Of a stretch of 64,000 bases of DNA, positions 23,947 to 42,152 are shown piece after piece; position 1 is the first letter of the stretch, and every line of letters starts with the position of its first letter. This DNA is from Actinomycetes bacterium (GTDB lineage: Bacteria > Actinomycetota > Acidimicrobiia > Acidimicrobiales > Bog-793). Made by a program: the position numbers and the translations under genes. Under the pieces are notes generated by a model. It was not told the DNA's origin and ran no database searches. It saw only the letters and a list, made by a program, of their open reading frames with translations. The stretch lies in contig JAJZBW010000001.1 of NCBI GenBank assembly GCA_021798745.1, positions 1,188 to 65,187 on the forward strand. The letters are read 5' to 3'.

Positions 23947-25798
<1,852 letters not shown>

Positions 25799-25807
<9 letters not shown>

Positions 25808-25819
25808 ACCAGTCCCGAG
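25799..25819. promoter_or_regulatory. Candidate DosR-box-like site TTCGGCTAGACCAGTCCCGAG, upstream of the USP gene
   Basis: The right half, AGTCCCGA, matches the published DosR consensus TTSGGGACTWWAGTCCCSAA well. The left half matches only in TTCGG and carries one extra nt. The site lies 74-94 nt upstream of the USP start. Confidence 0.3.
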
Positions 25820-25892
25820 GGGCGAACAGGTCCGAAAGGCCCTACTGCCCTCCTCGGGGCGATGCGAACATCACGCGCGGAGGTGGTCCGCC

Positions 25893-26354
25893 GTGGACGT
25901 GGCAGCGAGACAGCGAGAGGGCAAGGGGCGCGCCGCGGGACCGGTCGTCGTCGGGGTCGACGGTTCGAAGGCGTCCGACGCGGCGCTCGAGTGGGCGGCG
26001 GAGGAGGCGCGCATGCGCGGTGCGACCCTCCGGGTCGTGCACTCGTGGTCGCTCCCGACCTGGAGCTACTCCGCGTACCTCCCTCCCGTCGCGTTCGAGG
26101 AGGTGGAGCCCGCGGCCCGAGAGGACCTCGACCGCCAGGTCGCCCAGGTGCTCGGTCCGAGCCCGGACGTGCGCGTCGAGAAGGAGCTCCGCGAAGGACC
26201 GGCCGCCGAGCAGATCCTCGACGCGGCGGCGGACGCGGCACTCGTCGTCGTCGGCTCCCGTGGGCGCGGGGGATTCGCGGGCCTCCTGCTCGGATCGGTC
26301 AGCGCCCAGGTCGTGCAGCACGCGCACTGTCCCGTGACGATCGTCCGGACCTGA
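25893..26354 (+). CDS. Universal stress protein (UspA family)
   Basis: The motifs VVVGVDGSKASDAALEWAAEEA and the ATP-binding region VVGSRGRGGFAGLLLGSVSAQVVQHAHCPV are present. Confidence 0.9.
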   Translation: MDVAARQREGKGRAAGPVVVGVDGSKASDAALEWAAEEARMRGATLRVVHSWSLPTWSYSAYLPPVAFEEVEPAAREDLDRQVAQVLGPSPDVRVEKELREGPAAEQILDAAADAALVVVGSRGRGGFAGLLLGSVSAQVVQHAHCPVTIVRT

Positions 26355-26361
26355 GCGTCAC

Positions 26362-26847
26362 GTGGCGAGCGAGGGGGGTGGCCCGCACGTGTTCGTCCTC
26401 GACTCCGAGGTCGTCGACCAGGCGTTCGAGACGATCGTCGCGCGTGTGCGGACGGACGCGGACCTCCTTCTCGGCGGCGCTCTCGACTCGGCGCGCGCCG
26501 AGGGCGAGCGGCTCCGGGGGCGCGTCGGACCGCCGGGCTGGCCGGTCGCGTTCGCGAAGGAGGTCGAGATCGAGCGCGGCCCCGTCCGGGTCCTGCACGA
26601 CCACGTGCTCCTCGCCTTCTCCTGGACCGCGACCGCCGCCGCCTCGCTCTTCCCCCAGCTCGACGCGGACCTCGAGATCGCCCCGTACGGGCTCGCGCAG
26701 ACCGAGGTCCTCCTCCGCGCCCGGTACGAGCCGCCCGGCGGGACGATCGGGCGGGGGGTCGACCAGCTCCTCCTCCGGCGGGTCGCGGAGTCGACGCTCC
26801 GGGCGTTCCTCGCGCGGATCTGCGACCAGCTCAATCGGGATGCGTGA
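26362..26847 (+). CDS. Hypothetical protein (161 aa)
   Basis: The composition looks protein-like and the gene is tightly packed after the USP gene. It has a GTG start. I recognise no family. Confidence 0.55.
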   Translation: MASEGGGPHVFVLDSEVVDQAFETIVARVRTDADLLLGGALDSARAEGERLRGRVGPPGWPVAFAKEVEIERGPVRVLHDHVLLAFSWTATAAASLFPQLDADLEIAPYGLAQTEVLLRARYEPPGGTIGRGVDQLLLRRVAESTLRAFLARICDQLNRDA

Positions 26848-26880: not shown

Positions 26881-27978
26881 ATGGACCAAAACGACCTGGA
26901 CACCGTTCTCGGCAAGCTCGTGAAGGCCGAGGGGTCCGACCTTCACGTCAAGGCCGGCTCTCCGCCGCGCATGCGCGTGAACGGGATCCTTCGCCGCATG
27001 ACCGACCAGCGCGTCATCGACGGGGGCGACCTCGAGCTCCTCGCACGGGCGATCATGCACGAGCGCGTGTGGCAGCGGTTCGAGACGACCTCCGAGGCGG
27101 ACTTCGCGTACTCGGTGTCCCAGCTCGGCCGGTTCCGAGTGAACGCGTTCCGCCAGCGCGGGACCGTGTCCATGGTCTTCCGGCACGTCCGCCCGGGGAC
27201 GCAGATGCTCGCGGAGCTCGGGCTCCCCGACGCCGTGAGACGGCTCGCCGAGGAGCCGCGGGGGATCGTCCTCGTCACCGGTCCGACCGGGTGCGGCAAG
27301 ACGACGACGCTCGCCGCGATGATCGACCACCTGAACAAGACGCGCGAGTGCCACATCGTGACCATCGAGGACCCGATCGAGGTGCTCCACCGCGACAACC
27401 TCGCCTCGATAAGCCAGCGGGAGGTCGGGTTCGACACGGACAGCTTCAACGTCGCTCTGCGGTCCGCGCTCCGGGAGGACCCGGACGTGATCCTCGTCGG
27501 CGAGATGCGGGACCCGGAGACCGTGGAGACGGCGCTCACCGCGGCGGAGACGGGGCACCTCGTGCTCTCCACGCTCCACACGGGGGACTCGGTCGAGACG
27601 GTGAACCGGATCATCGACTTCTTCCCCCCGAGCCAGCAGCGACAGGCGCGCCTGTCGCTCGCGGGCGCCCTCCGGGGCACGATCTGCCAGCGTCTCGTGA
27701 CGACCGCGGACGGATCGGGTCGGGTGCCCGCGCTCGAGATCATGGTCGTGAACGGGCGGATCCAGCAGTGCATCGTCGAGCCCCAGCACACGAGCAACAT
27801 CGCCGAGATCGTCGCCGAGGGCGACTACTACGGGATGCAGACGTTCGCGCAGTCCCTCATCGGGCTGCTCCGCGAGGGGACGATCGACGTCGAGGCCGCG
27901 ATCGCGTCGGCTCCGAACTCTCACGACCTGCGCATCATGCTCCAGCGCCAGGGGATGGCCCAGTCCGTCCTCGGCTGA
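26881..27978 (+). CDS. PilT/PilU-family type IV pilus ATPase (PilU-like: lacks the AIRNLIRE motif)
   Basis: Walker A is GPTGCGKTT. The Asp/His boxes are present (DPDVILVGEMRD, TGHLVLSTLHT). At the position of the PilT signature it reads GRIQQCIVE. Confidence 0.88.
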   Translation: MDQNDLDTVLGKLVKAEGSDLHVKAGSPPRMRVNGILRRMTDQRVIDGGDLELLARAIMHERVWQRFETTSEADFAYSVSQLGRFRVNAFRQRGTVSMVFRHVRPGTQMLAELGLPDAVRRLAEEPRGIVLVTGPTGCGKTTTLAAMIDHLNKTRECHIVTIEDPIEVLHRDNLASISQREVGFDTDSFNVALRSALREDPDVILVGEMRDPETVETALTAAETGHLVLSTLHTGDSVETVNRIIDFFPPSQQRQARLSLAGALRGTICQRLVTTADGSGRVPALEIMVVNGRIQQCIVEPQHTSNIAEIVAEGDYYGMQTFAQSLIGLLREGTIDVEAAIASAPNSHDLRIMLQRQGMAQSVLG

Positions 27979-28036: not shown

Positions 28037-28990
28037 TCACCCGAGCCACGCGTGCGCGAGGTCCCGGCCGAACAGGACCGCGGCGAGCGTGCCGAACGCG
28101 AGGAAGGGGCCGAACGCGATCCGCGTCTTGCGCGTGACGCGGCCGGCCGCGATCAGGACCACCGCGACGAGGCCCGCCGCGACGAACCCGACCACGAGAC
28201 CGACCGCCGCGACGCGGTAGCCGAGCCACCCGAGGAAGCTCCCGCAGAGAGCAGCGAGGCGCACGTCGCCGAAGCCGATCCCACGCGGCGACACGAGGAA
28301 CACGAGCCCGAGCAGAGCGAACCCGACCGCTCCGGCGACGGGCACACGGACGAGCCCGGACCAGTCGTGGGTTGCCGCAGCGGCGAGGAGCAGCAGAGGA
28401 AGGCCGACGGCCCCCGTCGTGACGACGATCGGGGTCGGCAGGCGGAAGCGCTCGAGGTCGACGACGGTCAGCGCGACGAGCCCTGCGGCGAGCACGCAGT
28501 ACGAGGGGGCCGCCCAGTGGGTGGGGACGCGTGCGACGACCGCGCCGAAAAGCACCGCCGTGGTCAGCTCCGTCGCCGGGTAGCGCAGGGGGATCGGCTC
28601 CGAGCACGACCGGCATCGGCCCCGGCGGAGCACGTAGGAGACGACGGGGACGTTGTCGACGGCGCGGATCGCCGTCCCGCACGACGGACAGCGCGACCCC
28701 GGTGACACGACGGACCGACCCTCGGGGACGCGGGCCGTCACGACCGTGAGGAACGAACCGACGACCAGCCCGAACACGCCGGCCACGACGACCGCGATCA
28801 CGACCGGGGCTCCGGGCGGGGCCGGGAGGAGATCGTGTTCAACCCGCGGCTCGGGGCTGCCGTCAAGATCACCAGGAGGCGCACCGTGTCCCTTGTTGTC
28901 GACCAGACGCCGAGCGTGCCGCGGCGACGCTACTACGCGTCGCGCCCGCCGGTCCTCACTCTCACGGCTGCTCTCCTGACGAGCGCGCAT
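28037..28990 (-). CDS. pilD: Prepilin peptidase / N-methyltransferase (A24 family)
   Basis: CPSCG...CRSC Zn-finger-like pairs are present. The catalytic Asp motifs are GFGDVRLAA and a C-terminal FGPFLAFG region. It has multiple TM segments, and about 55 aa of N-terminal extension comes from the only ATG. Confidence 0.85.
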   Translation of the reverse strand: MRARQESSRESEDRRARRVVASPRHARRLVDNKGHGAPPGDLDGSPEPRVEHDLLPAPPGAPVVIAVVVAGVFGLVVGSFLTVVTARVPEGRSVVSPGSRCPSCGTAIRAVDNVPVVSYVLRRGRCRSCSEPIPLRYPATELTTAVLFGAVVARVPTHWAAPSYCVLAAGLVALTVVDLERFRLPTPIVVTTGAVGLPLLLLAAAATHDWSGLVRVPVAGAVGFALLGLVFLVSPRGIGFGDVRLAALCGSFLGWLGYRVAAVGLVVGFVAAGLVAVVLIAAGRVTRKTRIAFGPFLAFGTLAAVLFGRDLAHAWLG

Positions 28991-29043: not shown

Positions 29044-31581
29044 GTGGCGATGGCCGACGGGGACGTCGCGGAGGCGGGCTTCCCGGCGGTGTCGTTCGCG
29101 ACCGACGACGTCGACGCGACGCTGCTCGCCGAGGACATAGCGCGCGCGCGTGAGGCCGCGGTCCAGGCCGGCTTCGACTTCGTCGACCTCGAGCTGTTCG
29201 AGCTCGACCCGACCTCCGCGGACGTGCTGCCGGAGGACCGGGCGCGACGCGACCGTGCGGTCGCGGTCGGGTGGCGGTACGGCCTTCCCGTCGTGGCGGT
29301 CGCGAGCCCGGAGAACCTGTTCCTCCTCGACGACATCTACCTCGCCGCGGGACGTGACGTCCACATCGTCGTCGCGAGCGGCATCCAGATCGACCGGTGG
29401 ATCGAGCGTGTCTACGGGGGCTCGGCGCGCCGGTCCTCGTCGCCCGTCGCGTCCCCGCGTCGAGCCGCTCCCGCCGCGGGCCCCTCCGAGCTCGTCCCGA
29501 CGGGTTCGGACTCGATCGACGAGTGGACCGCCGCGGGGGCGGCCGCGCTCGTCGGGGACCTCACGACCTCCGACGCGGAGGAGCCCGCCCCGGATGACGG
29601 CGTCTCTGCCGGGGCGACGGGCCCGGAGACGGTCGAGGAGGACCTCTCCGACGCGGGCTCCCCCGGCGCGGGCGCTCCGGGCGCCGAGCTCCTCGACGGT
29701 GGCGTGCTCGCGGCGACCCCGCTCGACGCCGCCCCGCTCGACGTGACGCTCTCGATCGGCCTCCCCGTGCGAGGTGAGGGCGACACGGGCACCCCGCTCG
29801 GCCTCCTCGCGGCCTTCCCGGAGGGAGACCTCCCGGCCGCGCTGCTCGAGGAGCCCGAGGACCTCGTCGGGCCCGTCGACCTGAGCGGCCCGAAGCTCGC
29901 GCTCGGCGAGGTCCTCCTCGAGTCCGGGTCCATCAGCCCGGCGGACCTCGAGACCGCCGAGCGGCACCAGCAGTCCTCTGGCCGGGCGCTCCGGGAGATC
30001 ATCGCCGAGCTCGGCGTCGTGAACGAGGTGGACCTCCAGCGCGCCATCGCGAGAGTGGAGGGCGTCGAGTTCCTGGACCTCAACAGCTGGGCGATCGACC
30101 CGTCCGCGGCGAGCCTCCTCCCCGAGTCCCTCGCTCGCCGCTACCGGATCCTCGCGATCGGGTTCCGCGGCGATCGGCCGGTCATCGCGATGGTGAACCC
30201 GACGGACGTGTTCGCGCTGGACGACGTCCGGACGATGCTCGGGCGCGACGTCGTCACGGTCATCTGCACGGCGCGTCAGGTCGAGGAGTACCTGTCGCGC
30301 ACCTACCGGCACAGCGACGAGGCGAACGTCGCGGCTCGCAACGCGGCGCTCTCGGCCGCAGCGTCGGAGGCGACGCAGCTCGGGGAGCTCACGGACCTCC
30401 ACGCGGTCGTCGAGGACGCCCCGATCGTCAAGTTCGTGAACCTCATCTTGCGCCAGGCGCTGAACGAGCGCGCGTCGGACGTGCACATCGAGCCGACCTC
30501 GGACGACCTGCAGGTCCGCTTCCGGATCGACGGCGTCCTCCACGAGGTGACGAGCGCGCCGAAGGCGATCCAGGGCGGGGTCACCTCGCGCCTCAAGATC
30601 ATGGCGGACCTCGACATCGCGGAGCACCGTGTCCCCCAGGACGGGCGCCTCTCGCTCAACGCCGGTGGCCGCGAGATCGACCTTCGCGTCGCGACCCTCC
30701 CGACCGTGCACGGCGAGAAGGTCGTGCTGCGGGTCCTCGACAAGTCGACCGCCCCACTCGACCTCGCGCGCCTCGGCTTCCTCCCCGAGGTGCTCTCGCG
30801 CTACGAGGAGTGCTATCGCAAGCCATCGGGGACCATCCTCGTGACGGGCCCGACCGGGTCGGGCAAGTCCACGACCCTGTACGCGACCCTCAACAAGCTG
30901 AACAGCTCGGAGCGGAACCTCATCACGGTCGAGGACCCCGTCGAGTACCAGCTCCGCGGCGTGAACCAGGTCCAGGTGAACCCTCGCGCCGGGCTGAGCT
31001 TCGCGAGCGCGCTCCGGTCGATCCTGCGCTCGGACCCCGACGTCGTGCTCGTCGGGGAGATCCGGGACCGGGAGACGGCGACGATCGCCGTGGAGGCCGC
31101 CCTCACCGGCCACCTCGTGCTCTCGACGCTGCACACGAACGACGCCGCGAGCACCCCGCTCCGTCTCGTCGAGATGGGCGTCGAGCCGTTCCTCGTGTGC
31201 TCCGCTCTCGACTGCGTCCTCGCGCAGCGACTCGCTCGCCTCCTCTGCGACGTCTGCTCCGATCCCTACGAGCCGACCTCCCAGGAGCTCGTCGCCGCCC
31301 GCTGGGTGGAGGCGGACACCCCCGAGTCGGGCGATGTCCAGTTCCGCCGTGCCGTCGGATGCCAGGCCTGCAGCGGGACCGGGTACCGAGGCCGTCTCGC
31401 GATCCAGGAGGTGCTCCCTGTGACCGAGGAGGTCGAGCGGGCGATCCTCGCGCGGGCCTCGACCGAGGACATCAAGCGCCTTGCGATCTTCGAGGGGATG
31501 ACGACGATGCACCGGGACGGCCTGAGGAAGGCCGCCATGGGGCTCACGAGCCTGGAAGAGATCCTGAGGGTGGTCGTATGA
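29044..31581 (+). CDS. pilB: Type IV pilus assembly (extension) ATPase PilB/GspE family, long form (845 aa)
   Basis: Two T2SSE_N-like N-terminal domains are separated by an acidic, Pro-rich linker. Walker A is GPTGSGKSTT. The tetracysteine motif is CDVC...CQAC. Confidence 0.92.
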   Translation: MAMADGDVAEAGFPAVSFATDDVDATLLAEDIARAREAAVQAGFDFVDLELFELDPTSADVLPEDRARRDRAVAVGWRYGLPVVAVASPENLFLLDDIYLAAGRDVHIVVASGIQIDRWIERVYGGSARRSSSPVASPRRAAPAAGPSELVPTGSDSIDEWTAAGAAALVGDLTTSDAEEPAPDDGVSAGATGPETVEEDLSDAGSPGAGAPGAELLDGGVLAATPLDAAPLDVTLSIGLPVRGEGDTGTPLGLLAAFPEGDLPAALLEEPEDLVGPVDLSGPKLALGEVLLESGSISPADLETAERHQQSSGRALREIIAELGVVNEVDLQRAIARVEGVEFLDLNSWAIDPSAASLLPESLARRYRILAIGFRGDRPVIAMVNPTDVFALDDVRTMLGRDVVTVICTARQVEEYLSRTYRHSDEANVAARNAALSAAASEATQLGELTDLHAVVEDAPIVKFVNLILRQALNERASDVHIEPTSDDLQVRFRIDGVLHEVTSAPKAIQGGVTSRLKIMADLDIAEHRVPQDGRLSLNAGGREIDLRVATLPTVHGEKVVLRVLDKSTAPLDLARLGFLPEVLSRYEECYRKPSGTILVTGPTGSGKSTTLYATLNKLNSSERNLITVEDPVEYQLRGVNQVQVNPRAGLSFASALRSILRSDPDVVLVGEIRDRETATIAVEAALTGHLVLSTLHTNDAASTPLRLVEMGVEPFLVCSALDCVLAQRLARLLCDVCSDPYEPTSQELVAARWVEADTPESGDVQFRRAVGCQACSGTGYRGRLAIQEVLPVTEEVERAILARASTEDIKRLAIFEGMTTMHRDGLRKAAMGLTSLEEILRVVV

Positions 31582-31609
31582 ACCGGAGGGCTTCGGAGAA
31601 GGTGGCTGC

Positions 31610-33394
31610 ATGAGCATTGCAACGACACCGGTGTCGGAGTGGTCGCGGCGCCTCGCGGAGGCGCTCGTGTCGAACGGCCAGCTCGACGCGGAGGCGGCGC
31701 GTGCCGCGCTCGCGCGCTCGGCCTCGAGTGGGACACCCGTCGCCGTGCTGCTCTCTCGCGAGGGCCTCGTCGAGAGCTCCGAGTCGCTCGAGTGCCTCGC
31801 CGCGATCTCCGGGCTTCGCGCGGTGGACCTCGACAGGGACCCCCCGACGCTCGCCGCCGCCGCCGCCGTCCCGCTCGGCGTCGCCCGCTACCACCGGGCG
31901 ATCGGCCAACGGCTCGAGGACGGGTACCTCGTGCTCGCGTGCTCCGAGCCTCTCGCGGCGGACCACCTCCAGTCGATCGCATCGGCCATCGACTGCGGGA
32001 TCGCGGGGTGCGTCCTCGGCGACCCCATCGTGATCGACAGGCTCATCGCACACGCAGGCGCGCCGCCGAGCACGCGTGCCGCCGACGAGGAGGACACCGT
32101 GAAGCTGCTCACGCGCGCGTCGACCCGCGACGCCCCGTCACCGGCTCGTGCCGGATCGTTCGCCTCGGGGTCCGCCGACGACCTCTTCGGGAGCGGGTAC
32201 GTGCTCGCGGACCGTGAGGAGCCGTCCACCCGGGTCGTGCTCGACCTCGGCCCCGCGTCGCCCGAGCGGGCGCTGCCCGACGGGACCTCCCCGACGGACC
32301 GTCGCCCCGGACCGTTCGGACGCCCGTTCGCGAGCGACGTGAACGACCTCTTGACCTTCGCTGTCGAGCACGGCGCGTCCGACCTGCACCTCGCTGCCCG
32401 GTTCGCGCCCGCCGTGCGCATCGACGGTTCGATCCGCCCCATCGAGGACCTCGAGCCGATGGAGCCGCTCGCGCTCCGGGACATGATCTTCCAGATCCTT
32501 CCCCAGTCGGTCCGGGAGCGGTACGAGGCGACGAAGGAGCTCGACACCTCCTACGAGATCCCCGACCTCGGGAGGTTCCGGCTCAGCGTGTTCCAGCAGC
32601 GCGGAGCCGTCGGGGCGGTGTTCCGGACGATCCCCCCGACGATCCCGACGCTCGAGTCGCTCGGCCTGCCGAGAGCGCTCGCGTCCTTCGCGGAGCTCCG
32701 CCGAGGTCTTGTGCTCCTCACGGGCCCGACGGGGTCGGGCAAGTCCACGACCCTCGCCGCCGTCGTCGACCGCATCAACGCGACGAAGCCCCTCCACATC
32801 ATGACCGTCGAGGACCCGATCGAGTACCACCACGAGCACAAGCGCTCGATCGTGAACCAGAGGGAGATCGGCCAGGACACCTCGTCGTTCGCCGAGTGCC
32901 TCCGTCACGTCCTTCGCCAGGACCCCGACGTGATCCTCGTCGGCGAGATGCGCGACCTCGAGACCATCTCGACCGCCCTCACGGCGGCCGAGACGGGCCA
33001 CCTCGTGTTCGCGACTCTCCACACCCAGGACGCGCCGCAGACGATCGACCGGGTGATCGACGCGTTCCCGACGAACCAGCAGGACCAGGTGCGCGTGCAG
33101 CTCGCAGGCGCGCTCGAGGCTGTCGTGACCCAGCAGCTCGTCATCGCCGAGGGGGGCGTCGGGCGCGTGCCGGTCGCCGAGGTGATGGTGTGCACGCCCG
33201 CGATCCGGAACCTCATCCGGTCGGCGAAGACCCACCAGATCTACTCCCTCATGCAGACCGGCGGGTCGAGCGGGATGCAGACGATGGACCAGGCGCTCGC
33301 CGACGCGGTGCGGGACCGCAAGATCAGCGAGAACGTCGCGTTCGACCGGGCGCACGACCCGAAGCAGCTCCTCGACTACCTGAAGGGCTCGTGA
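31610..33394 (+). CDS. pilT: PilT-type retraction ATPase with an about 240-aa N-terminal extension containing a T2SSE_N-like domain
   Basis: The C-terminal 350 aa form a canonical PilT: GPTGSGKSTT, DPDVILVGEMRD and the signature PAIRNLIRS. The N-terminus resembles GspE/PilB N-domains (LAEALVSNGQLDAEAARAAL...VLACSEPL). Confidence 0.88.
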   Translation: MSIATTPVSEWSRRLAEALVSNGQLDAEAARAALARSASSGTPVAVLLSREGLVESSESLECLAAISGLRAVDLDRDPPTLAAAAAVPLGVARYHRAIGQRLEDGYLVLACSEPLAADHLQSIASAIDCGIAGCVLGDPIVIDRLIAHAGAPPSTRAADEEDTVKLLTRASTRDAPSPARAGSFASGSADDLFGSGYVLADREEPSTRVVLDLGPASPERALPDGTSPTDRRPGPFGRPFASDVNDLLTFAVEHGASDLHLAARFAPAVRIDGSIRPIEDLEPMEPLALRDMIFQILPQSVRERYEATKELDTSYEIPDLGRFRLSVFQQRGAVGAVFRTIPPTIPTLESLGLPRALASFAELRRGLVLLTGPTGSGKSTTLAAVVDRINATKPLHIMTVEDPIEYHHEHKRSIVNQREIGQDTSSFAECLRHVLRQDPDVILVGEMRDLETISTALTAAETGHLVFATLHTQDAPQTIDRVIDAFPTNQQDQVRVQLAGALEAVVTQQLVIAEGGVGRVPVAEVMVCTPAIRNLIRSAKTHQIYSLMQTGGSSGMQTMDQALADAVRDRKISENVAFDRAHDPKQLLDYLKGS

Positions 33395-33401
33395 GCGCGC
33401 C

Positions 33402-34634
33402 ATGTCCATGACGACGTACGAGTACCGGGTCCGCGACAACGCGGGCAAGGTCGTGAAGGGCAGGATCGACGCGGACAACAAGTCGCTCGTCGCGACACGG
33501 CTTCGCGAGATGGGGTACCTTCCCATCGAGATCAAGGCGACGTCCGCGCTCGACCTCCACCGGGACATCCGGATCCCGGGCCTGAGCGACCGGGTGAACC
33601 TGAAGGAGATCTCGGTGATGAGCCGCCAGCTCGCGACGATGGTCGCGTCGGGGCTCACTCTCGTGCGGGCGATCGCCGTGCTCTCCGCCCAGGTCGAGTC
33701 CAAGCCGCTCCGCACCGTGCTCGTCGCCGTGCGCAGCGACGTCGAGCACGGAAGCTCGTTCTCCGCCGCCCTCGCGAAGCACCCGAAGGTCTTCGACCGC
33801 CTCTACGTGTCCATGGTGCGCGCGGGCGAGGTCGGTGGGCAGCTCGACGTCGTGCTCTTGAAGCTCGCGTCCTCGATCGAGAAGCGGGTCGAGCTGCGCT
33901 CCAAGGTGCGCTCGGCGTTCACCTACCCGGTCGTCGTCGTGTGCGTCGTCGTGCTCGTGATCACCGCGATGATGCTGTTCGTCGTCCCGACCTTCAAGCA
34001 CCTCTACGGGAGCCTCCACGGCACGCTCCCGCTCCCGACGCGCATCGTCATCGGCATCTCGAGCGTCGTCGCGAGCGTCTGGGCGCTCGCGGTGGTCGCT
34101 GTCGTCGCCGGCGTCGTCCTCGCTGCCCGCTGGTGGGTGTCGACCGAGAAGGGGCGACTCACCTGGGATCGTGTCCGGCTCCGTGCACCCGTGTTCGGCC
34201 CGCTCATGTTGAAGGTCGGCCTCTCCCGCATGCTCGCGACCCTCGCGACCCTTCTCTCCTCGGGCGTCGGCATCATCGAGTCCCTCGAGATGGCCGCGGA
34301 CAACGTGAGCAACCGGATCGTGAGCAACGCGGCCCGCGGGGCGATCGTGGGCGTGCGCGACGGGCGCTCGCTCGCGTCGGCGCTCGCCGAGCACCCGGTC
34401 GTCCCCCCGATGGTCCTCCAGATGGTCGAGACCGGCGAGGAGTCGGGCGCGGTGAGCGACATGCTGGAGAAGGTCGCCCAGTTCTACGACAACGAGATCG
34501 ACGCGACGGTCGGGAGCCTCACGTCGCTCCTCGAGCCCGCGCTCATCGTGTTCATGGGCATCTGCATCGGAGCGATCGTCATCAGCCTCTACCTGCCGAT
34601 GTTCGACTACGTAAAGCTCCTCCAGCCGTCGTAA
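33402..34634 (+). CDS. pilC: Type IV pilus platform protein PilC (GspF family)
   Basis: It has two T2SSF repeats, three TM segments and the typical C-terminus (LLEPALIVFMGICIGAIVISLYLPMF). Confidence 0.92.
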   Translation: MSMTTYEYRVRDNAGKVVKGRIDADNKSLVATRLREMGYLPIEIKATSALDLHRDIRIPGLSDRVNLKEISVMSRQLATMVASGLTLVRAIAVLSAQVESKPLRTVLVAVRSDVEHGSSFSAALAKHPKVFDRLYVSMVRAGEVGGQLDVVLLKLASSIEKRVELRSKVRSAFTYPVVVVCVVVLVITAMMLFVVPTFKHLYGSLHGTLPLPTRIVIGISSVVASVWALAVVAVVAGVVLAARWWVSTEKGRLTWDRVRLRAPVFGPLMLKVGLSRMLATLATLLSSGVGIIESLEMAADNVSNRIVSNAARGAIVGVRDGRSLASALAEHPVVPPMVLQMVETGEESGAVSDMLEKVAQFYDNEIDATVGSLTSLLEPALIVFMGICIGAIVISLYLPMFDYVKLLQPS

Positions 34635-34685: not shown

Positions 34686-36395
34686 ATGACGCGGCGAATC
34701 GGCATCGAGGTGACCGCCACCTCGGTGCGGGCTGTCGAGGTGGAGAGCGGCGGCGCGCGCTCGAAGGTGCTGTCGTTCGGGGAGGCGGCGCTCCCGAAGG
34801 GCGCGGTCGCCGACGGGGCGATCCTCGACCGCGCGGCCGTGAAGCGGACGGTCGCCTCCTGCCTCAAGAACGCCCACCTCGAGCGGCGGAGGTTCGGTGC
34901 CCCGCCCGAGGTGTGGCTCGCGGTCGCGGGCCTCCGGGCCATCAGCCGGGAGATCGTGATGCCGAGCGTCCCCGACGCGGACCTCGACGCGGCGGTCCGT
35001 CTGCAGGCGCTCGACATCATCCCGTTCCCCGAGGACGAGACCCTCCTGTCGGCACGGACCCTCGGGACCGTGACGTCCCCGGACGGGACCGAGCTCGTGC
35101 GGGTCCACCTCGCGGCTGCGCACCGGGCGCTCGTGGAGCCGTTCGTCGACGTGCTCGCCGAGTCCGGTCTCGTCGTGAAGGGCGTGGACCTCGCGTCGTC
35201 CGCCCTCGTGCGGGCGCTCGCGGGAGCGGACCTCGGGGTGGAGGCGATCGTCGCGATCGGCGCGGACCTCACGACCATCGTGATCCACGAGCACGGCGAG
35301 CCGCACTTCGTCCGGACGATCGCGGGCGGCGGGAACGCCGTGACTCGGGCCATCTCGGCGGCGCTCGACATCCCCGCGCCCGACGCGGAGCAGATAAAGA
35401 TCCGGCTCGGGTGGTCGCCGACCGACGCGGGGAGGCTCCCGGCGGAGGCCGTCGCTGCGGCGCGTGACGGCTCCGCCCCGCTTCTCGGGGAGATCCGGAG
35501 CTCGATCGACTACTTCGCGACGCTGCCCGGGCTCCCGGAGGTGTCACGTGTGCTCGTGACCGGCGGAGGCTCCCGGCTCGCGGGCTTCGTCGAGAGGCTC
35601 GAGTACCAGGTGCGCGTGCCCGTCACGACGGGGAGCTGGCTCGAGAACGTCGACACGGGACGCCTCGGCGTCGACCGCATCCACCTCGACACGGTCGGAG
35701 CGGTCGCCGCGGGCGCCGCCATGACGGAGCCCTCGGGTCGGAAGGCGCTCGACCTCCTCCCGCCCGAGGTCCTCGTCGAGCGACGCCGGGCGCGCACGAC
35801 GCGGGCGATCCAGAGCGCCGCAGTCGTGCTCGTCGTCGCGCTCGTCGCGGGCGGGGCGCTCCGCTTCCTCCAGGTCCGCAACGCCGAGCACGGCGTCGGG
35901 AACATCCAGGGCGAGATCTCGTACCTCGAGAGGCAGCTCCCCGCCTACGACAAGGTCCAGCAGCAGGACAACGCGATCCTCACGGACTCCCACATCGGGA
36001 TGCCGATCGTGAGCCACGAGGTGAACTGGCCTGCCGTGCTCGCCGCTCTCGCGCGGTACACGCCCTCGTCGGTCAGCGCGAGCGGCTTCTCGGGCTCGAC
36101 GACCGTCGCCCCGACGGCGGCGACGAGCGTGACGACCGGCCACCCGGTCGCTCCCCCGTCCGCCCTGCCCGCCGCGACCGACACGGTCGGGACGGTGAAC
36201 CTGTCCTTCTCCGCCCCCCAGTACCCCTCGTTCAAGGAGTGGTTCGACGCGATGGTCGCATCCGCGAGTTTCGAGATCGTCCAGTACTCCGGCGTGTCGA
36301 GCAGCGGGCACGGCGTCGACTTCACCGCGCAGCTCGCGGTGACGGGGAGGATCCACACGGACCGCCTCGCCGAGTTCGAGGTTCCGAAGCGATGA
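34686..36395 (+). CDS. pilM: PilM-PilN fusion protein (actin-like ATPase fold, then a TM and a PilN-like periplasmic domain)
   Basis: The N-terminal 350 aa are PilM-like (IGIEVTATSVRAVEV..., VLVTGGGSRLAGF). Then comes LDLLPPEVLVERRRAR, the TM AAVVLVVALVAGGAL, and about 200 aa beyond it. Confidence 0.85.
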   Translation: MTRRIGIEVTATSVRAVEVESGGARSKVLSFGEAALPKGAVADGAILDRAAVKRTVASCLKNAHLERRRFGAPPEVWLAVAGLRAISREIVMPSVPDADLDAAVRLQALDIIPFPEDETLLSARTLGTVTSPDGTELVRVHLAAAHRALVEPFVDVLAESGLVVKGVDLASSALVRALAGADLGVEAIVAIGADLTTIVIHEHGEPHFVRTIAGGGNAVTRAISAALDIPAPDAEQIKIRLGWSPTDAGRLPAEAVAAARDGSAPLLGEIRSSIDYFATLPGLPEVSRVLVTGGGSRLAGFVERLEYQVRVPVTTGSWLENVDTGRLGVDRIHLDTVGAVAAGAAMTEPSGRKALDLLPPEVLVERRRARTTRAIQSAAVVLVVALVAGGALRFLQVRNAEHGVGNIQGEISYLERQLPAYDKVQQQDNAILTDSHIGMPIVSHEVNWPAVLAALARYTPSSVSASGFSGSTTVAPTAATSVTTGHPVAPPSALPAATDTVGTVNLSFSAPQYPSFKEWFDAMVASASFEIVQYSGVSSSGHGVDFTAQLAVTGRIHTDRLAEFEVPKR

Positions 36396-36982
36396 GCGCC
36401 CCGGCCCGCAGCCTCGTGCAGCGCCCGGCGGTGCTCGTCTCGGTCGTCGGCGTCCTCGTGCTCGCTCTCGCGTGGTGGTTCGCGTGGATGGCGCCGGAGG
36501 GGACGAAGCTCGCGGGGATCCGCCAGCAGCAGGTCACCGCGCAGCAGACCGAGACGCGCCTCGACCTCCGGCTCGTCCAGCTCCGAGCGGAGGCCAAGCA
36601 GGTCCGGGCCGCCGCCCCGTTCCTCGAGCACTTCGCCCAGGCGATCCCGCCGGTCCCCGACGCCCCGGACCTCGTCGTCCAGGTGTACCACCTCGCGGTC
36701 GCGAACGGCGTGAGCCTGCAGAGCGTGACCGACGACTCCGTGCAGACCACGGGGCTCGGGTACTCGACGATCCCCGTCTCGCTCAGCGTCGCGGGGCCCC
36801 ACGACCAGCTCCTCGCGTTCGTCTCCGGCCTGTACAGGCTGACCCGCCTTCTCACGATCCAGTCCGTGAGCCTCTCCGGCAACGGCAACCTGAACGCGTC
36901 GAGCTTCTCGAACTACACGGCCTCGATCAGCGCGACCGCGTACACGACGTCGGCGCCGAAGGCCCCGGCGGGCGCGTCCTGA
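36392..36982 (+). CDS. pilO: PilO-like pilus assembly protein
   Basis: An ATGA overlap joins it to pilMN. It has an N-terminal TM (VLVSVVGVLVLALAWWF), a coiled coil and a PilO-type C-domain (IPVSLSVAGPHDQLLAFVSGLYRLTRLLTI). Confidence 0.8.
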   Translation: MSAPARSLVQRPAVLVSVVGVLVLALAWWFAWMAPEGTKLAGIRQQQVTAQQTETRLDLRLVQLRAEAKQVRAAAPFLEHFAQAIPPVPDAPDLVVQVYHLAVANGVSLQSVTDDSVQTTGLGYSTIPVSLSVAGPHDQLLAFVSGLYRLTRLLTIQSVSLSGNGNLNASSFSNYTASISATAYTTSAPKAPAGAS

Positions 36983-36990
36983 GCGAGACG

Positions 36991-38556
36991 ATGGCCGCGA
37001 CACCGTGGTCTCGTCGCGCTCGCGCCGACGCGCGCCGCGCGTGCGCCGGCGCGCCCCTCGACGACGGGTTCTCCCTCGTCGAGGTGCTCGTCGCGCTCCT
37101 CGTGCTCGCCCTCGTCGTGCTCCCCCTCACGCTCGTGCTCATAACGACGCACAGCTCGGCGAACACCCTGCACCGTAGAGCCGAGGCGGCGGACCTCGCG
37201 ACCCAGGCCCTCGAGACGGCCCAGTACCAGGCGGCCGCGGGCGCGCCGCTCGCGACCGGGGCGACGACGTCGACCCAGATGTCGGGGAGCGACCAGTTCC
37301 GCGTCTCGCTCGACCTCTCGATCCTCCCGCAGTCCGGGGTCGGCACGTTGTGCACGGCCCCTCCCGGGGCGACCTCGACCGAGGTGTGGCAGGCGACCGC
37401 GTCCGTGAGCTGGGGGTCGTCGGGGTCGAGCGGGAGCTCGGTCGTCGAGCGCGCGCTCATCTCGCCCGCGCAGGCCGACCTCGCGAACGTGAGCGCGGGC
37501 GAGATCGCCGTCCCGGTCTACACGACCGTCGCGTCCTCCATGTCGACGACCACGACGACGTCCTCCCCCGGCTCGCCCGCGGCGCTCCCGACGACGCTCG
37601 AGACACAGACCCCGATATCGGTGACCGTGACGGGCCGCTGCACCCTCGCATCCTGCGCGCAGCCCTCGGGCACCCCCCTGCCCGTGACGACGGAGACCGA
37701 GAACACAGGGTCGACCGGGTGCGCGGTCTTCCCGAACCTCTGGGCAGCGACGGGGTGGCTCTACACCGTGACCGTCTCCGGGAACGCGGGATGGGTCGAC
37801 CCGAGCGAGCTCTCGGACTCGGCGACCGCGACGGGCGTCCCGACGCTCGCGCCGATGGCGATCACTCCCGACTCCGTCACCCAGCCGACCGGCCAGATCG
37901 TCCTCGACCAGGGAGCGGCGGTCACGGTCGACTTCTCGGACACCGTGAACAAGTCGGCGGTGCCAGCTCCGTTCCTCCCCGTGACCTTCGTGAGCCCCGG
38001 GGCGTGCGGGAGCGCGGGCCTGTGCGTGCTCGGGAACGCGACGACTGCGTTCGCGACGGTGGCGTCCTCGGCGCAGACCGCCCTGCTCTTCCCGTTCCCC
38101 TCGGCCGGCGCCAACTACACGGTGTACGCGGGAGGGACGTCCGACGCGGACCCGAGCGCCGCGTACTACGGGACGGGCGGGACGGTCACGCGTCTCACGG
38201 CCGGCGCCGCGGGATCGGCGACGGTCACGCTGCCGCTGTACCCGCTCTCGCTGACGGCGACCGTGAAGAGCGACGCGGGCTCCGTCATCCAGCTCCTCGC
38301 GAAGGACTCGGCGGGGAACACGATCGACCTCAACTACGCGGGCGGGACCGGGGCGAGCCTCACGAGCCTTCCGCTCGGGGAGTACGAGATCGGGGCGACC
38401 GTCTCGGGCTCGAACTCGAACGTCACGTACTCGGGTGGGACCGCGTACATGTGGGTCACACCGACGGGAGTCTGCCCCTCCACGTCGCCGCTCTCCCCGG
38501 GGACCTCCGTGTGCTCGTCGCCCTCGACGTCGCAGATCGCGGTGACCGTCGGATGA
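36991..38556 (+). CDS. Large minor pilin (521 aa) with a prepilin N-terminal cleavage/methylation motif
   Basis: The class III signal is ...APLDDG|FSLVEVLVALLVLALVVLPL, with Glu5. A long Ser/Thr-rich beta-rich C-terminal region follows. Confidence 0.85.
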   Translation: MAATPWSRRARADARRACAGAPLDDGFSLVEVLVALLVLALVVLPLTLVLITTHSSANTLHRRAEAADLATQALETAQYQAAAGAPLATGATTSTQMSGSDQFRVSLDLSILPQSGVGTLCTAPPGATSTEVWQATASVSWGSSGSSGSSVVERALISPAQADLANVSAGEIAVPVYTTVASSMSTTTTTSSPGSPAALPTTLETQTPISVTVTGRCTLASCAQPSGTPLPVTTETENTGSTGCAVFPNLWAATGWLYTVTVSGNAGWVDPSELSDSATATGVPTLAPMAITPDSVTQPTGQIVLDQGAAVTVDFSDTVNKSAVPAPFLPVTFVSPGACGSAGLCVLGNATTAFATVASSAQTALLFPFPSAGANYTVYAGGTSDADPSAAYYGTGGTVTRLTAGAAGSATVTLPLYPLSLTATVKSDAGSVIQLLAKDSAGNTIDLNYAGGTGASLTSLPLGEYEIGATVSGSNSNVTYSGGTAYMWVTPTGVCPSTSPLSPGTSVCSSPSTSQIAVTVG

Positions 38557-39605
38557 CCGCTCCGTCGCGCCCGAGCGCCCCGCACCTCGGCCGTCCCCTA
38601 CGCCGCGCACGCAGGGGGGACGGAGGGTTCACGTTCATCGAGCTCCTCGTCGCGATGGCCGTCCTCGCGATCATCGTGCCCGTCATCTACGGGCTCATAG
38701 GGAACCTGAGCCAGCAGAGCGTCGACCTCCACGACACGATGCTCGGGCTGAAGCAGGACCAGACCGCCGGCAACGCGCTCCTCGAGTACCTGCACGGCGC
38801 GGTCACGGTCCTGCCGGGGTCGACCCCGACGACGCTCATCGCCTCGATCGAGGCGGGCTACAACACGACCACCGGGACCCAGGACATCGCGACGCTCGAA
38901 GCCCAGCTCGTGCCGCCGAGCGGCTCGAACGCCGACGCGTCCTTCGTCGTGTCCATCACCCCGCAGGGCGGGACGCCGCACCCCATCGGGACGTACTACG
39001 TCGTGAACGGCGCGAACCCCTTCACGTACTACTACTACGCGGCTGCGGGAACTGCAGCTCCCTCGTGCGGAGCGACGACCCCGACGACCACGACCAACCC
39101 GCCGGACGCGACCGGCCAGGAGCTCGTCGCGGTCCACGACCCGTGCGCCGTGCTCGCGAACGTCGTCGCGGTCGGGGTCGACGTCACGTTCCTCGCCGGG
39201 CCGCAGAAGCCCCTCCAGGGCTTCCAGGCAATCCAGCCGACGACGTTCCAGACGACCGTGTACCTCCAGAACGCGAACGCCCCCGCCCCGACGACCGCGA
39301 CGGCCGTGACCTACCCGAACATCTCGCCGACCTACGGGACCACGGTGGCGTTCACCGTCACGGTCACTCCCGCGCCCGACGGGGGCACGGTCACCGCGGT
39401 CGTCACGTTCGGGGGCTCGACGATCTCGAACTCCTGCTCGGGCGCCACGACGCTCTCGGCGACCGGTCAGGCGTCGTGCTCGTTCTTCGCGTCCTACCGC
39501 GGCACGTACACGGTCACCGCGACCTACTCGGGCGCGACGAGCCCACCCGCTGCCTCGGCCTACACCGCGTCGACCTCGGCGGGCACGCCGGTGAACGCGT
39601 CGTGA
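38553..39605 (+). CDS. Minor pilin (350 aa) with a C-terminal Ig-like domain
   Basis: An ATGA overlap joins it to the upstream gene. The signal is ...RRGDGG|FTFIELLVAMAVLAIIV. The C-terminus resembles a bacterial Ig-like fold (TTVAFTVTVTPAPDGGTVTAVVTFGGSTI...GTYTVTATYSGA). Confidence 0.85.
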   Translation: MTAPSRPSAPHLGRPLRRARRGDGGFTFIELLVAMAVLAIIVPVIYGLIGNLSQQSVDLHDTMLGLKQDQTAGNALLEYLHGAVTVLPGSTPTTLIASIEAGYNTTTGTQDIATLEAQLVPPSGSNADASFVVSITPQGGTPHPIGTYYVVNGANPFTYYYYAAAGTAAPSCGATTPTTTTNPPDATGQELVAVHDPCAVLANVVAVGVDVTFLAGPQKPLQGFQAIQPTTFQTTVYLQNANAPAPTTATAVTYPNISPTYGTTVAFTVTVTPAPDGGTVTAVVTFGGSTISNSCSGATTLSATGQASCSFFASYRGTYTVTATYSGATSPPAASAYTASTSAGTPVNAS

Positions 39606-41980
39606 GCGCGCCCCGCACGCTCCGGCGCCGGGCGCGCCGAGGGGTCGCGTCGGCGCTCCACCGGCGGCTCGAGGCCGTGCGCCACGGCCGGGACGACTCG
39701 GGCCAGATCATCGTGATCATCGTGATCCTCGTCGTGCTCCTCTCGGTCCTCGGCCCGCTCATGGCGTCTCAGATCACGAGCGACGCCCCGCTCGTCGTGC
39801 TCTCCACGAACAAGCACGCTGCTCTCGCCGCGGCGGAGTCCGGGATCGAGTGGTACCGGAACCACCTCGACGCGAACCCGAACTACTACCTCTACAGCGC
39901 CTCGAACCCGCCGTCCCCCGCGGACCCGGCGATGCTGGCGAACGGGTGGTGCTCGTCCGCGTGCGACCTCGGGGGAACGAGCCCGAGCGAGGCGTTCCAC
40001 TACGTCCCGAACGACTCGACCCTGTTCGCGACCTCCGGGACGAACGCGGGGCGCGTCGTGCTGACCGTGACCGGCCGGGGTGGCTCCGCGGGGAGCTACG
40101 TGTACGTGACCGCACGTGCGAGCTTCACCGCGAGCTCGATCCTCGCGAACGCGTACTTCTCGAACACCGAGGTCCTCGACCCCCTCTACCCCGACGAGCA
40201 GCAGACGGGCGTCTCGGTGACCGGGCTGAGCGCTCCCCAGGGGATCACGACGTACCCCGTGACGTACCCCGTGAACGGGACCGACACGACGACCTCGCTC
40301 TGGAACGCGCTCTGCGGCTACCAGACGTACCAGGCCAACACCTTCCTCGACTGGCTCGGCCAGACGCAGAACACGCAGATCGACGCGGAGAGCGCGACGA
40401 ACCCGAGCAACGTCACCGTGCAGGCGTACACGCCCACGCACCCCTACTACGGCCCCTACTACGGGGTCCAGGGGTTCAGCTTCACGAACGGCAACGGCGA
40501 GACCGTGAGCGTCCCGGGCATCGCGTGCGGCGGGACGTTCGACTTCAACACCGGCGAGAGCTTCGCGGGCCCCGTGTACTCGAACGACCAGCTCCACGTG
40601 TGTGGCTCGCCGACGTTCTCGGGGTCGCCCATCTCCTACACCTCGGGGGTCTCCTCGAACGTCGCCTACGCCTACGACTGGCTCGGCTCGGTGGAGGTCA
40701 CGCCGAAGACGGGCTCCCCCTACTACGCACCGGACGGAACGACCGTCGACCCCGTCCAGGGGTACTGCGGGCGGGGCGCGGCGCCGAACTTCGTGCACGG
40801 CTCGAGCCTGAACGGGAGCCTCGTCCTCCCGAGCTGGAACACCCAGCTCGCGTCCGCCGCGGCAGCCGGAGGGTGCCTGTTCACGGGACCGACGATGATC
40901 GCGCTCGTGACCTCGTCGACAGGAACGACGATGAACGTGTGGAGCCCGCTCTCAGGAGGCGCGAACGCCCCGGCCGCCGCGTGCAGCACGGGGAAGAGCC
41001 CGACCGGTGCGTCGCTCACGTCGTTCGGCCAGAGCTTCTCGGGGAGCTCGGGCCCGTACATCACGGGAATCCCGCTCCCCTCGAACGGCGTGGTCTTCGT
41101 CCAGAACGCAGGGGCGGCCGCGAGCGCCCCGACGGTCCAGGACGGCCTCAACAGCACGAACTCCGGGTGCATCAACCCGTACGTGAACCTCACGCAGGCG
41201 AACAACCCGATCCTGCCGACGGTCACGAAGACCTCCGCGACCTGCCTCGAGGGTGACGCCTTCGTGGAGGGAGAGCTGAAGGGCGAGCTCACGATCGGGT
41301 CCGCCGCGAACATCATCATCACCCGCGACCTCACGTACGCGTGCGCAGACGGGACGAGCGGGCCCGCGTCCCGGTCGGACCCGTCCTCCGTCGCCGCGTG
41401 CACGACGGGGACCACCCCGGACGTCCTCGGGCTCGAAGCCTTCGACAACGTCCTCATATCGCACCCCGTGAGCTCCCCCTACTCGGCCGCCCAGATGGCG
41501 AGCGGCACCCTCACGAACAACGGCGTGTCGATGTGCACCTACGACGGCACGGCCGCGACCGCTGCGACGCTCGCGGGGGGGACCTCGGGCGACCCCACGA
41601 GCGGGAAGACGATCGGCGAGCCCGTCGCGGTGTGGCCGAGCTGTGACATCGCGAACCCGATCGTCGACGCCGCCGTGATCTCGCTGAACGGCGCTCTCGG
41701 CGTCGAGTTCTGGGACCAGGGCTCCCCGCAGGCCTCGAACGGGGTGTTCCTGAACGGCGCGGACATAAGCCAGTACCGGGGACCTTTCGGGCTGATGAGC
41801 CCGTACTACGGAACCTGGGGGTACGACAAGCAGTTCAGCTTCGACAGCCGCCTCCAGTTCCTCCAGCCCCCCGACGCGCTCCAGTCGGCCGTGACCTCCT
41901 GGCAGGACCTCGGGTACGTCGTGTGCGGCAACGCGAACATCGCGACCGAGCCGACCCCCGTGTGCCCGCCGCTCGGCTAG
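39602..41980 (+). CDS. PilX-N-like, membrane-anchored large pilus-associated protein (792 aa, Cys-rich), a putative tip or adhesin component
   Basis: A GTGA overlap joins it to the upstream gene. The N-terminus DDSGQIIVIIVILVVLLSVLGPL resembles PilX_N and has no Glu5. I count about 16 Cys. The rest belongs to no family I recognise. Confidence 0.75.
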   Translation: MSAPRTLRRRARRGVASALHRRLEAVRHGRDDSGQIIVIIVILVVLLSVLGPLMASQITSDAPLVVLSTNKHAALAAAESGIEWYRNHLDANPNYYLYSASNPPSPADPAMLANGWCSSACDLGGTSPSEAFHYVPNDSTLFATSGTNAGRVVLTVTGRGGSAGSYVYVTARASFTASSILANAYFSNTEVLDPLYPDEQQTGVSVTGLSAPQGITTYPVTYPVNGTDTTTSLWNALCGYQTYQANTFLDWLGQTQNTQIDAESATNPSNVTVQAYTPTHPYYGPYYGVQGFSFTNGNGETVSVPGIACGGTFDFNTGESFAGPVYSNDQLHVCGSPTFSGSPISYTSGVSSNVAYAYDWLGSVEVTPKTGSPYYAPDGTTVDPVQGYCGRGAAPNFVHGSSLNGSLVLPSWNTQLASAAAAGGCLFTGPTMIALVTSSTGTTMNVWSPLSGGANAPAAACSTGKSPTGASLTSFGQSFSGSSGPYITGIPLPSNGVVFVQNAGAAASAPTVQDGLNSTNSGCINPYVNLTQANNPILPTVTKTSATCLEGDAFVEGELKGELTIGSAANIIITRDLTYACADGTSGPASRSDPSSVAACTTGTTPDVLGLEAFDNVLISHPVSSPYSAAQMASGTLTNNGVSMCTYDGTAATAATLAGGTSGDPTSGKTIGEPVAVWPSCDIANPIVDAAVISLNGALGVEFWDQGSPQASNGVFLNGADISQYRGPFGLMSPYYGTWGYDKQFSFDSRLQFLQPPDALQSAVTSWQDLGYVVCGNANIATEPTPVCPPLG

Positions 41981-42152
41981 CGGTCGCGCGTCCGCGGACG
42001 GAGCCGCCGGCGGCGCCGGCGGGCGCACGCGTGCCACGAGTCGTGGTCGACGAGCGCGCCCGACGGGGGAGGGTCCGGACTTTCGCCTCAAGGAGGTGTC
42101 ACGTCGCGCCGTTGTAACCGAGAGCCGAGCGTCGGCGCGATCCCAAGGAGGA

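Follow-up and report, generated by a model that had tools for sequence, protein, structure and literature searches.

What does it mean when a motor that retracts a type IV pilus carries the very domain by which extension motors are recognized? The N1D (or T2SSE_N) domain has been described as absent from PilT and PilU, or as the feature separating extension from retraction ATPases (PMC4624772; PMC11656802; 10.1101/2021.10.23.465551), and the question is raised by a pilT gene from an Actinomycetes bacterium assigned by GTDB to the Acidimicrobiales. The gene lies in a 64,000-nucleotide (nt) stretch, hereafter the window (contig JAJZBW010000001.1 of assembly GCA_021798745.1, positions 1,188 to 65,187 of the forward strand), whose base composition is high in GC (~72%). 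We propose, with confidence that is moderate rather than high, that its product is a true PilT-type retraction ATPase with a permanently acquired PilB-type N1D, which would act as a flexible docking tether to the PilM(-N) platform, the docking being argued by analogy with extension ATPases. The gene and its product, in amino acids (aa), divide as follows:

31610..33394, plus strand: long pilT, 594 aa plus stop, laid out as N1D/MshEN domain, disordered linker, and PilT core

31622..32059, plus strand: N-terminal MshEN/GSPII/N1D domain, aa 5-150, with a four-helix subdomain (aa 10-67) and an alpha/beta subdomain (aa 68-150)

32060..32332, plus strand: disordered linker, aa 151-241, rich in Pro, Ala, Gly, and Ser

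32333..33391, plus strand: PilT motor core (N2D plus CTD), aa 242-594, recognized by its TIGR01420 and PDB matches, its motifs, and its place in a tree

NCBI MDA8291335.1, from a metagenome-assembled genome (MAG) labelled Actinomycetota bacterium, has exactly the same sequence as the product, and the named close relatives of the product are all from Acidimicrobiales MAGs. A preliminary description of this DNA had called the last ~350 residues a canonical PilT, which profile, structure, and motif matches bear out. The core scores 470.2 bits against TIGR01420 (cutoff, 319.1), with aa 244-585 matching model positions 2-342 of 343, and its best PDB match is PilT 6ojx (expect value [E], 2.4e-112; aa 242-591); among reference structures, PilTs score 357-380 bits versus 268 for PilU, siding the long core with the PilTs. 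All four ATPase boxes are present, namely Walker A GPTGSGKST (aa 372-380; nt 32723-32749), the Asp box EDPIE (aa 401), Walker B DPDVILVGEMRD (aa 438), and the His box TGHLVFATLHT (aa 462), along with AIRNLIRS (aa 531-538; nt 33200-33223), which retains seven of the eight residues of the AIRNLIRE motif and in which N534, L535, and R537 are invariant across 61 aligned relatives. A neighbor-joining tree of 116 cores, constructed without bootstrap, places the core inside the actinobacterial PilT clade. As judged from its sequence, the core is a canonical PilT, bearing every hallmark of PilT and none of those of PilB.

Could such a core nevertheless work as, or also as, an extension motor? The domain that it carries is otherwise confined to extension ATPases (PMC11656802), and Vibrio cholerae PilT can reportedly promote extension of the MSHA pilus (PMC9815625). 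We regard an extension role as very unlikely here: a complete PilB with its zinc tetracysteine is encoded directly upstream, whereas the long PilT has no CxxC...CxxC (the only cysteines of the core are C430 and C528) and reaches 163.6 bits on the PilB model TIGR02538, far below the cutoff of 675.65, and its core nests within the PilT clade. The protein does depart from the usual description of PilT as about 340-370 aa long and without an N1D, in that it has 594 aa and contains PF05157; that rule of size and domain content is a descriptive generalization and not a mechanistic criterion.

The departure resides in the N terminus, where about 240 extra residues had been said to include a region resembling T2SSE_N. 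We count 241, and both profile and fold agree with the assignment. Pfam MshEN (PF05157) matches aa 68-151 with 26.6 bits (gathering cutoff, 23.1), and the only meaningful phmmer matches of the N-terminal 241 aa to the PDB, over aa 13-119, are to the N-domains of Thermus PilF, XpsE, and MshE. When aa 1-155 are modeled alone, AlphaFold2 returns four helices and, after them, an alpha/beta subdomain of three strands, with a predicted local distance difference test score (pLDDT) of 92.4 and a predicted template modeling score (pTM) of 0.83; the N-domain has a pLDDT of 91-98 both alone and in the full-length model, for which the pTM is 0.58. In Foldseek comparisons of the aa 1-155 model with the PDB, the top 20 matches are all N-domains of PilB, PilF, MshE, or XpsE, the best being 9g1w, the GSPII-A domain of PilF (template modeling score [TM], 0.72; E, 5e-8), and the second best 7lko, the N1D of Xanthomonas citri PilB; the TM to MshE and to XpsE-N is 0.64 in each case.

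Whether this domain is translated depends on the start codon, ahead of which stands one further element:

31599..31605, plus strand: Shine-Dalgarno-like AAGGTGG, read from the sequence, 4 nt before the ATG of long pilT

In high-GC genomes, spurious long open frames are common, and a GTG codon is found at residue 243, such that the extension might be an annotation or start-codon artifact, or a decaying remnant, in front of a normal PilT of ~350 aa. To this explanation we give almost no credence. Met1 is nearly invariant across the 61 aligned relatives, in which the N-domain forms a nearly gapless alignment of ~155 aa with W11, P79, A83, G99, P114, and L136 invariant, and there is no Shine-Dalgarno-like site ahead of the GTG at residue 243. 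The best 120 clusters (90% identity) from a collection of 5.8 billion proteins are all 411-707 aa long, and 118 of them contain PF05157 together with PF00437 (lengths, 542-707 aa), the two exceptions being P0011 (573 aa, covered over its full length, without a recorded PF05157) and P0012 (411 aa, from a contig of 1,982 bp). GC content at third codon positions (GC3) is 0.91 in the N-domain, 0.90 in the linker, and 0.96 in the core. Measured against two relatives of 85-87% identity, the ratio of nonsynonymous to synonymous substitution rates (dN/dS) spans 0.06-0.14 across the N-domain, as against 0.03-0.085 in the core and 0.37-0.43 in the linker; the linker, with GC3 of 0.90 at these ratios, stays in frame. 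Genes that appear to encode stand-alone N-domains, described below, sit on long-read contigs riddled with frameshifts. An internal start yielding a PilT of normal length is therefore contradicted on every one of these counts: the conserved Met1, the 118 clusters, GC3, dN/dS, and the Shine-Dalgarno-like site. The annotated start codon is, on this sequence evidence, genuine, and these results together with the pLDDT above 90 show that the N-domain is genuine and folded, belongs to the translated protein, and evolves under strong purifying selection.

What might the domain do? Its fold is that of a proven cyclic di-GMP (c-di-GMP) receptor family (PMC5013675), and the region corresponding to the binding site can be located precisely:

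31649..31807, plus strand: region matching the 53-residue c-di-GMP site of MshE, with motif I (aa 14-37), a spacer, and motif II (aa 43-66); degenerate

We compared twelve key positions of this site, taking the MshE register from the phmmer match (query 7-115 on chain 2-110). The two half-sites of the long PilT read RLA... and PVA..., as against RLG.... Glycine at position 3 is found in none of the 61 family members in either 24-residue motif, Gln24, which ends motif I, is likewise present in 0 of 61, and Leu17 of motif I has given way to Gly or Ala. The Arg that begins motif II is also missing from all 61, with Pro in its place in 49. Arg14, Leu15, the helix-turn glycines Gly23 and Gly52, and the scaffold leucines Leu34 and Leu63 are kept. 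The relaxed motif of Wang et al. (PMC5013675) is matched by no family member, and the query fails it at position 3.

In MshE, the backbone amide of Gly3 reads the Hoogsteen edge of the guanine, and either G11L or G40I abolishes c-di-GMP binding; the loss of binding in XpsE has been ascribed to the same kinds of change, namely G11V, R38G, G40L, and Q61V (PMC5013675). We had also considered that Pro43 by itself disqualifies motif II, and dropped this point when it emerged that PilF GSPII-C binds c-di-GMP with Pro in that position (PMC11731258). Because a proline at the start of motif II is thus tolerated, the case for degeneracy rests mainly on the glycines. Since these guanine-bonding glycines are replaced in every family member, as they are in XpsE, we infer that the N1D has lost c-di-GMP binding and predict that it is blind to this messenger.

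A sensory role would then require an unconventional ligand. The N-domain could gate retraction as a second-messenger sensor, binding c-di-GMP non-canonically or binding cyclic GMP-AMP (cGAMP) or some other dinucleotide, in a mirrored version of the way in which c-di-GMP activates extension by MshE or PilB. The receptor-family fold, the retained Arg14, Leu15, Gly23, Gly52, Leu34, and Leu63, an invariant Trp11 directly before the site, the binding by PilF GSPII-C despite its motif II proline, and a GGDEF gene near the homologous locus L002 are all consistent with such a sensor. The lost glycines, Gln24, and Leu17 speak against it, as does the PilB from the same locus, whose c-di-GMP motifs are also degenerate relative to MshE (R9A, L29E, R38A, G40R, and Q61V), although this PilB scores narrowly above the cutoff of the NCBIfam model for the c-di-GMP motif (39.4 versus 38 bits). 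On balance, we find the sensor distinctly unlikely. Where the preliminary description had spoken of a regulatory or anchoring domain, then, c-di-GMP sensing is disfavored and anchoring, or docking, remains plausible.

The case for docking begins with what is thought about N1Ds elsewhere. In extension ATPases they are thought to touch the stator complex, i.e., PilM (PMC11656802; 10.1101/2021.10.23.465551), and PilF binds PilMN via PilM, with GSPII-C needed for stimulation by PilMN (PMC6325625). GspE-N1, moreover, binds the PilM-like cytoplasmic domain of GspL in a complex of solved structure (2bh1 and 4pht, both among the weaker Foldseek matches of the N-domain). In the window, the candidate docking partner is encoded two genes downstream of long pilT:

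34686..36395, plus strand: PilM with a membrane-spanning C-terminal extension, 569 aa; PilM_2 at aa 6-315 (Pfam, 3e-31)

Beyond PilM_2, the translation reads LDLLPPEV and then runs through a hydrophobic helix into some 170 further residues; its relatives are 569-572 aa long. The protein looks like a PilM-PilN fusion with a GspL-like layout, and a Pfam scan gave no PilN match.

Between the N-domain and the core, AlphaFold assigns a pLDDT below 50 over aa 152-241. Among the 61 relatives, this linker varies from 46 to 200 aa (median, 105) with a column identity of 29%; in the PilB of the same locus, the MshEN domain is only about 25 aa away from the motor. In the mechanism that we propose, the N1D would serve as a protein-protein docking module on a long, floppy Pro/Ala-rich tether and would dock to the cytoplasmic PilM domain of PilM(-N), in the socket thought to be used by the N1Ds of PilB, PilF, and GspE. 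Six tethers per hexamer could concentrate the retraction motor at its own machine, and a tethered PilT might exchange quickly with PilB while its motor ring was still free to engage PilC. Since the pilB stop overlaps the pilT start by 4 nt in related loci, coupled translation of the two motors is also suggested.

Several points weigh against docking to PilM as the function. In Thermus, no single GSPII domain is essential for PilMN binding (PMC6325625), so that docking of an N1D to PilM is not firm even for PilB. The motif rules for c-di-GMP are not absolute, and a non-canonical ligand may exist. A disordered linker of 90 aa would equally suit an autoinhibitory or partner-recruiting role, and the view of the C-terminal half of the 569-aa protein as a PilN comes from reading its residues, with no profile match. 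A partner other than PilM could be the N1D or hexamer of PilB, with the contact coordinating the switch from one motor to the other; it could also be a PilZ-like adaptor, or the ring of PilT, on which the domain would act as an autoinhibitory lid. The N1D of X. citri PilB, our second-best fold match, is the PilZ-binding surface in the PilB-PilZ-FimX complex (PMC8389850); pilB and long pilT lie side by side, and their 4-nt overlap in related loci hints at translational coupling; and the long flexible linker permits back-folding. No PilZ-like gene is apparent, however, among the Pfam-scanned genes of the locus, and the data favor none of these partners over PilM. We consider them possible, if somewhat improbable, and retain the PilM-docked tether as our preferred reading.

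How widespread is this architecture, and how did it arise? In a large clade, with Acidimicrobiales as its named members, the pilT gene beside pilB encodes the arrangement N1D-linker-PilT as a rule. The PilT N-domain is 27% identical (E, 2e-4) to the motor-proximal MshEN domain of the PilB from the same locus (aa 287-375) and 33% identical to that of the PilB from a related locus; identities this low indicate that the fusion is old, and they rule out a recent duplication of the neighboring PilB N1D. For a view beyond the close relatives, we scanned GTDB genomes by full-length alignment keyed on PilT-core peptides, which is a sample and not a census, and kept 80 loci. Among the matches listed, MshEN-PilT fusions occur only in L003 (Acidimicrobiaceae) and L014 (Egicoccus sp.). 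The latter, from an Egicoccus sp. MAG (L014:7281-9056), scores 53.7 bits for PF05157 and 514 bits for the PilT core; its N-domain matches PilB MshEN domains at 31% identity and E of 1e-16 and the Acidimicrobiales PilT N-domain at E of 0.69 and, being closer to the former, probably reflects an independent fusion.

Also among the matches listed, four loci encode a PilT core preceded by a REC domain and a Pro/Ala-rich linker (L023:7377-9170, L021:7320-9065, L024:7257-9056, and L028:7050-9056), in MAGs labelled uncultured actinobacterium, Coriobacteriia, Actinobacteria UBA6100, and Eubacteriales. A Pfam scan of two of them gave 54-57 bits for PF00072. All four seem to be REC-PilT fusions, a description of which we did not find in the literature searched. 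The long upstream frames of other actinobacterial pilT genes (Cellulomonas, etc.) contain no Pfam domain and may simply be open frames of high GC content, and were not counted as fusions.

Genes that seem to encode the N-domain by itself (P0122, P0273, P0274, P0172, and the split L003) could be taken as a "Rosetta stone" for the fusion, and we rejected them as such. P0122 and P0274, the two whose contigs we examined, are frameshift artifacts, given that these long-read contigs also carry pilC, pilM, and pilB in pieces, and we assume the same of P0273, P0172, and L003. In L003:7953-9618, L083:5001-6815, and L084:5001-6824, all from long-read metagenome assemblies, long pilT is split into an N-domain gene and a "normal" pilT, with other pil genes nearby broken as well; we read these splits as assembly frameshifts, which could mislead surveys of domain architecture.

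Other searches say less about distribution. The N-terminal 241 aa as query gave 1 match and the alignment of the N-domain 5, numbers that are uninformative on spread because low-complexity Ala-rich words swamp the prefilter. A profile of the N-domain matched 8038, 524, and 14 representatives at E of 1e-3, 1e-10, and 1e-30 in a library that is clustered at 50% identity and contains many fragments, so that the size of the family is difficult to gauge; very few of these representatives join the N-domain to a core of the PilT type.

A broader idea, which we consider unlikely, is that the N1D, instead of being peculiar to extension, is a transferable tag that directs whichever motor bears it to the pilus machine, that the N1Ds of PilB and PilT compete for one PilM socket in these monoderm Actinomycetota, and that the relative affinities of these N1Ds, or a ligand of the PilT N1D replacing c-di-GMP, set the balance between extension and retraction. 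If this were true, the Egicoccus and REC-PilT fusions would mean that Actinomycetota control pilus dynamics mainly at the retraction motor.

The long PilT is not the only PilT-family motor of its locus, a second gene lying upstream of it:

26881..27978, plus strand: short PilT-family paralog, 365 aa, in which GRIQQCIVE replaces AIRNLIRE; position kept in related loci

This ATPase had been described as PilU-like for its lack of AIRNLIRE, and the loss of the motif stands; the assignment to PilU does not. It scores 436 bits against TIGR01420, is 45% identical to the core of the long PilT, and matches PilT structures better than PilU (Thermus PilT 5fl3, 341 bits, the best match; 5zfq, 318 bits; PilU 9n32, 266 bits). 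In the neighbor-joining tree of 116 cores mentioned above, it clusters with its equivalents in two related loci, L002_5046 and L003_2911, apart from 28 proteobacterial PilUs. By scores and tree position, it belongs to an Acidimicrobiales clade of its own and appears to be a second, clade-specific PilT-family motor, for which "PilU-like" is at most a functional analogy.

The remaining pilus genes of the window are as follows:

28037..28990, minus strand: prepilin peptidase PilD; Pfam A24_N_bact and Peptidase_A24; relatives have 254-264 aa

29044..31581, plus strand: PilB extension ATPase, 845 aa, with two MshEN stretches and the zinc tetracysteine C735, C738, C773, and C776; directly upstream of long pilT

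33402..34634, plus strand: PilC platform protein; Pfam T2SSF twice

36392..36982, plus strand: PilO; Pfam PilO at 4.1e-10 on the longer open reading frame (ORF) 36239..36982; its start probably overlaps the stop of pilM, an arrangement seen in relatives (196 aa)

Given the lengths of its relatives, the true start of PilD is probably internal. Of the two MshEN stretches of PilB (29044..31581), the extra one is partial, consisting of the C-subdomain only (aa ~36-120), and is separated from the complete MshEN by a low-complexity stretch of ~160 aa. The order short pilT, pilD (on the minus strand), pilB, long pilT, pilC, pilM, pilO, and pilin-like genes makes up a complete type IVa pilus locus and is kept in six related loci (L001, L002, L083, L084 [with fragmented gene calls], L085, and L086); the short pilT is present upstream in L002, L083, L084, L085, and L086 and absent from L001.

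Directly upstream of the short pilT, positions 23947-26847 of the window encode a GAF-HisKA_3 kinase (on the minus strand), a response regulator of the LuxR/GerE type, a Usp protein, and a protein of 152-161 aa without a Pfam match. This four-gene block is kept in the two closest relatives, L085 and L086, and may form a dedicated regulatory module for the pilus locus. Downstream, a 694-aa ORF at 36472-38556 has an N_methyl motif at aa 199-219 and probably a true start near 37.0 kb, and a 971-aa ORF at 39065-41980 has no Pfam match; relatives have genes of 518-1169 aa at both of these sites downstream of pilO. A pilin candidate of 219 aa (42096-42755; N_methyl motif at aa 41-62) adjoins a divergently oriented gene for a protein resembling Wzy_C/O-antigen ligases with C-terminal TPR repeats (42918-44687), after which come a sugar transferase and a flippase-like gene, which suggests a module for pilin O-glycosylation.

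Public databases already list the long PilTs by a generic name, "PilT/PilU family type 4a pilus ATPase," and both Pfam domains are precomputed for them. A description of an MshEN- or N1D-bearing PilT was not found in the literature searched, whose coverage excludes most subscription journals, and a text search of the paper surveying MshEN domains finds no mention of "PilT," though many partner domains are listed there. Because the literature searched treats the N1D as a mark of extension versus retraction, the Acidimicrobiales clade is an apparently undescribed exception. The absence of the N1D has also been used to argue that PilT and PilU are not direct targets of c-di-GMP. The role of the N1D is acknowledged to be poorly understood, and this clade offers a clean test: if the N-domain docks to PilM, then the N1D is a module that addresses a motor to its machine and not a part of the extension mechanism, whereas if it binds a ligand, retraction is directly gated by a signal. 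At a practical level, the annotation rule that MshEN plus T2SSE denotes PilB or GspE will misassign these PilTs.

Set beside known systems, each part of the long PilT has clear counterparts. The solved PilTs of Geobacter metallireducens (6ojx), Pseudomonas aeruginosa (3jvu/3jvv), and Aquifex (2ewv) align end to end with aa 242-594 (E, 1e-105 to 1e-112), and, as in other PilTs, the core lacks the zinc tetracysteine and the gene lies in a pil operon beside pilB and pilC; the protein differs from them in its 241 extra N-terminal residues and in the last residue of the AIRNLIRE motif, which is Ser and not Glu. Like the N1Ds of PilB, MshE, PilF, and GspE/XpsE, its N-domain has a fold of two subdomains and is N-terminal to an ATPase of the PilT/VirB11 class. 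Unlike those of extension ATPases, it sits on a retraction-type core via a much longer disordered linker and constitutes a distinct sequence subfamily, sharing only 27-33% identity with the N1Ds of PilBs from its own or related loci. Its half-sites, lacking the essential Gly, resemble those of the non-binding XpsE-N and of PilF GSPII-A, which alone among the PilF domains fails to bind c-di-GMP (PMC11731258), rather than those of MshE. The Egicoccus and REC-PilT proteins share its layout (a signaling or docking domain, a low-complexity linker, and a PilT core), although REC is unrelated to MshEN. The short paralog, for its part, is like PilU in belonging to the PilT family, in lacking AIRNLIRE, and in coexisting with a bona fide PilT; it is unlike PilU in that its motif is GRIQQCIVE and not PLxxDLI(R/F)KG, and in that its gene is not in tandem with pilT but lies upstream, beyond the divergently oriented pilD.

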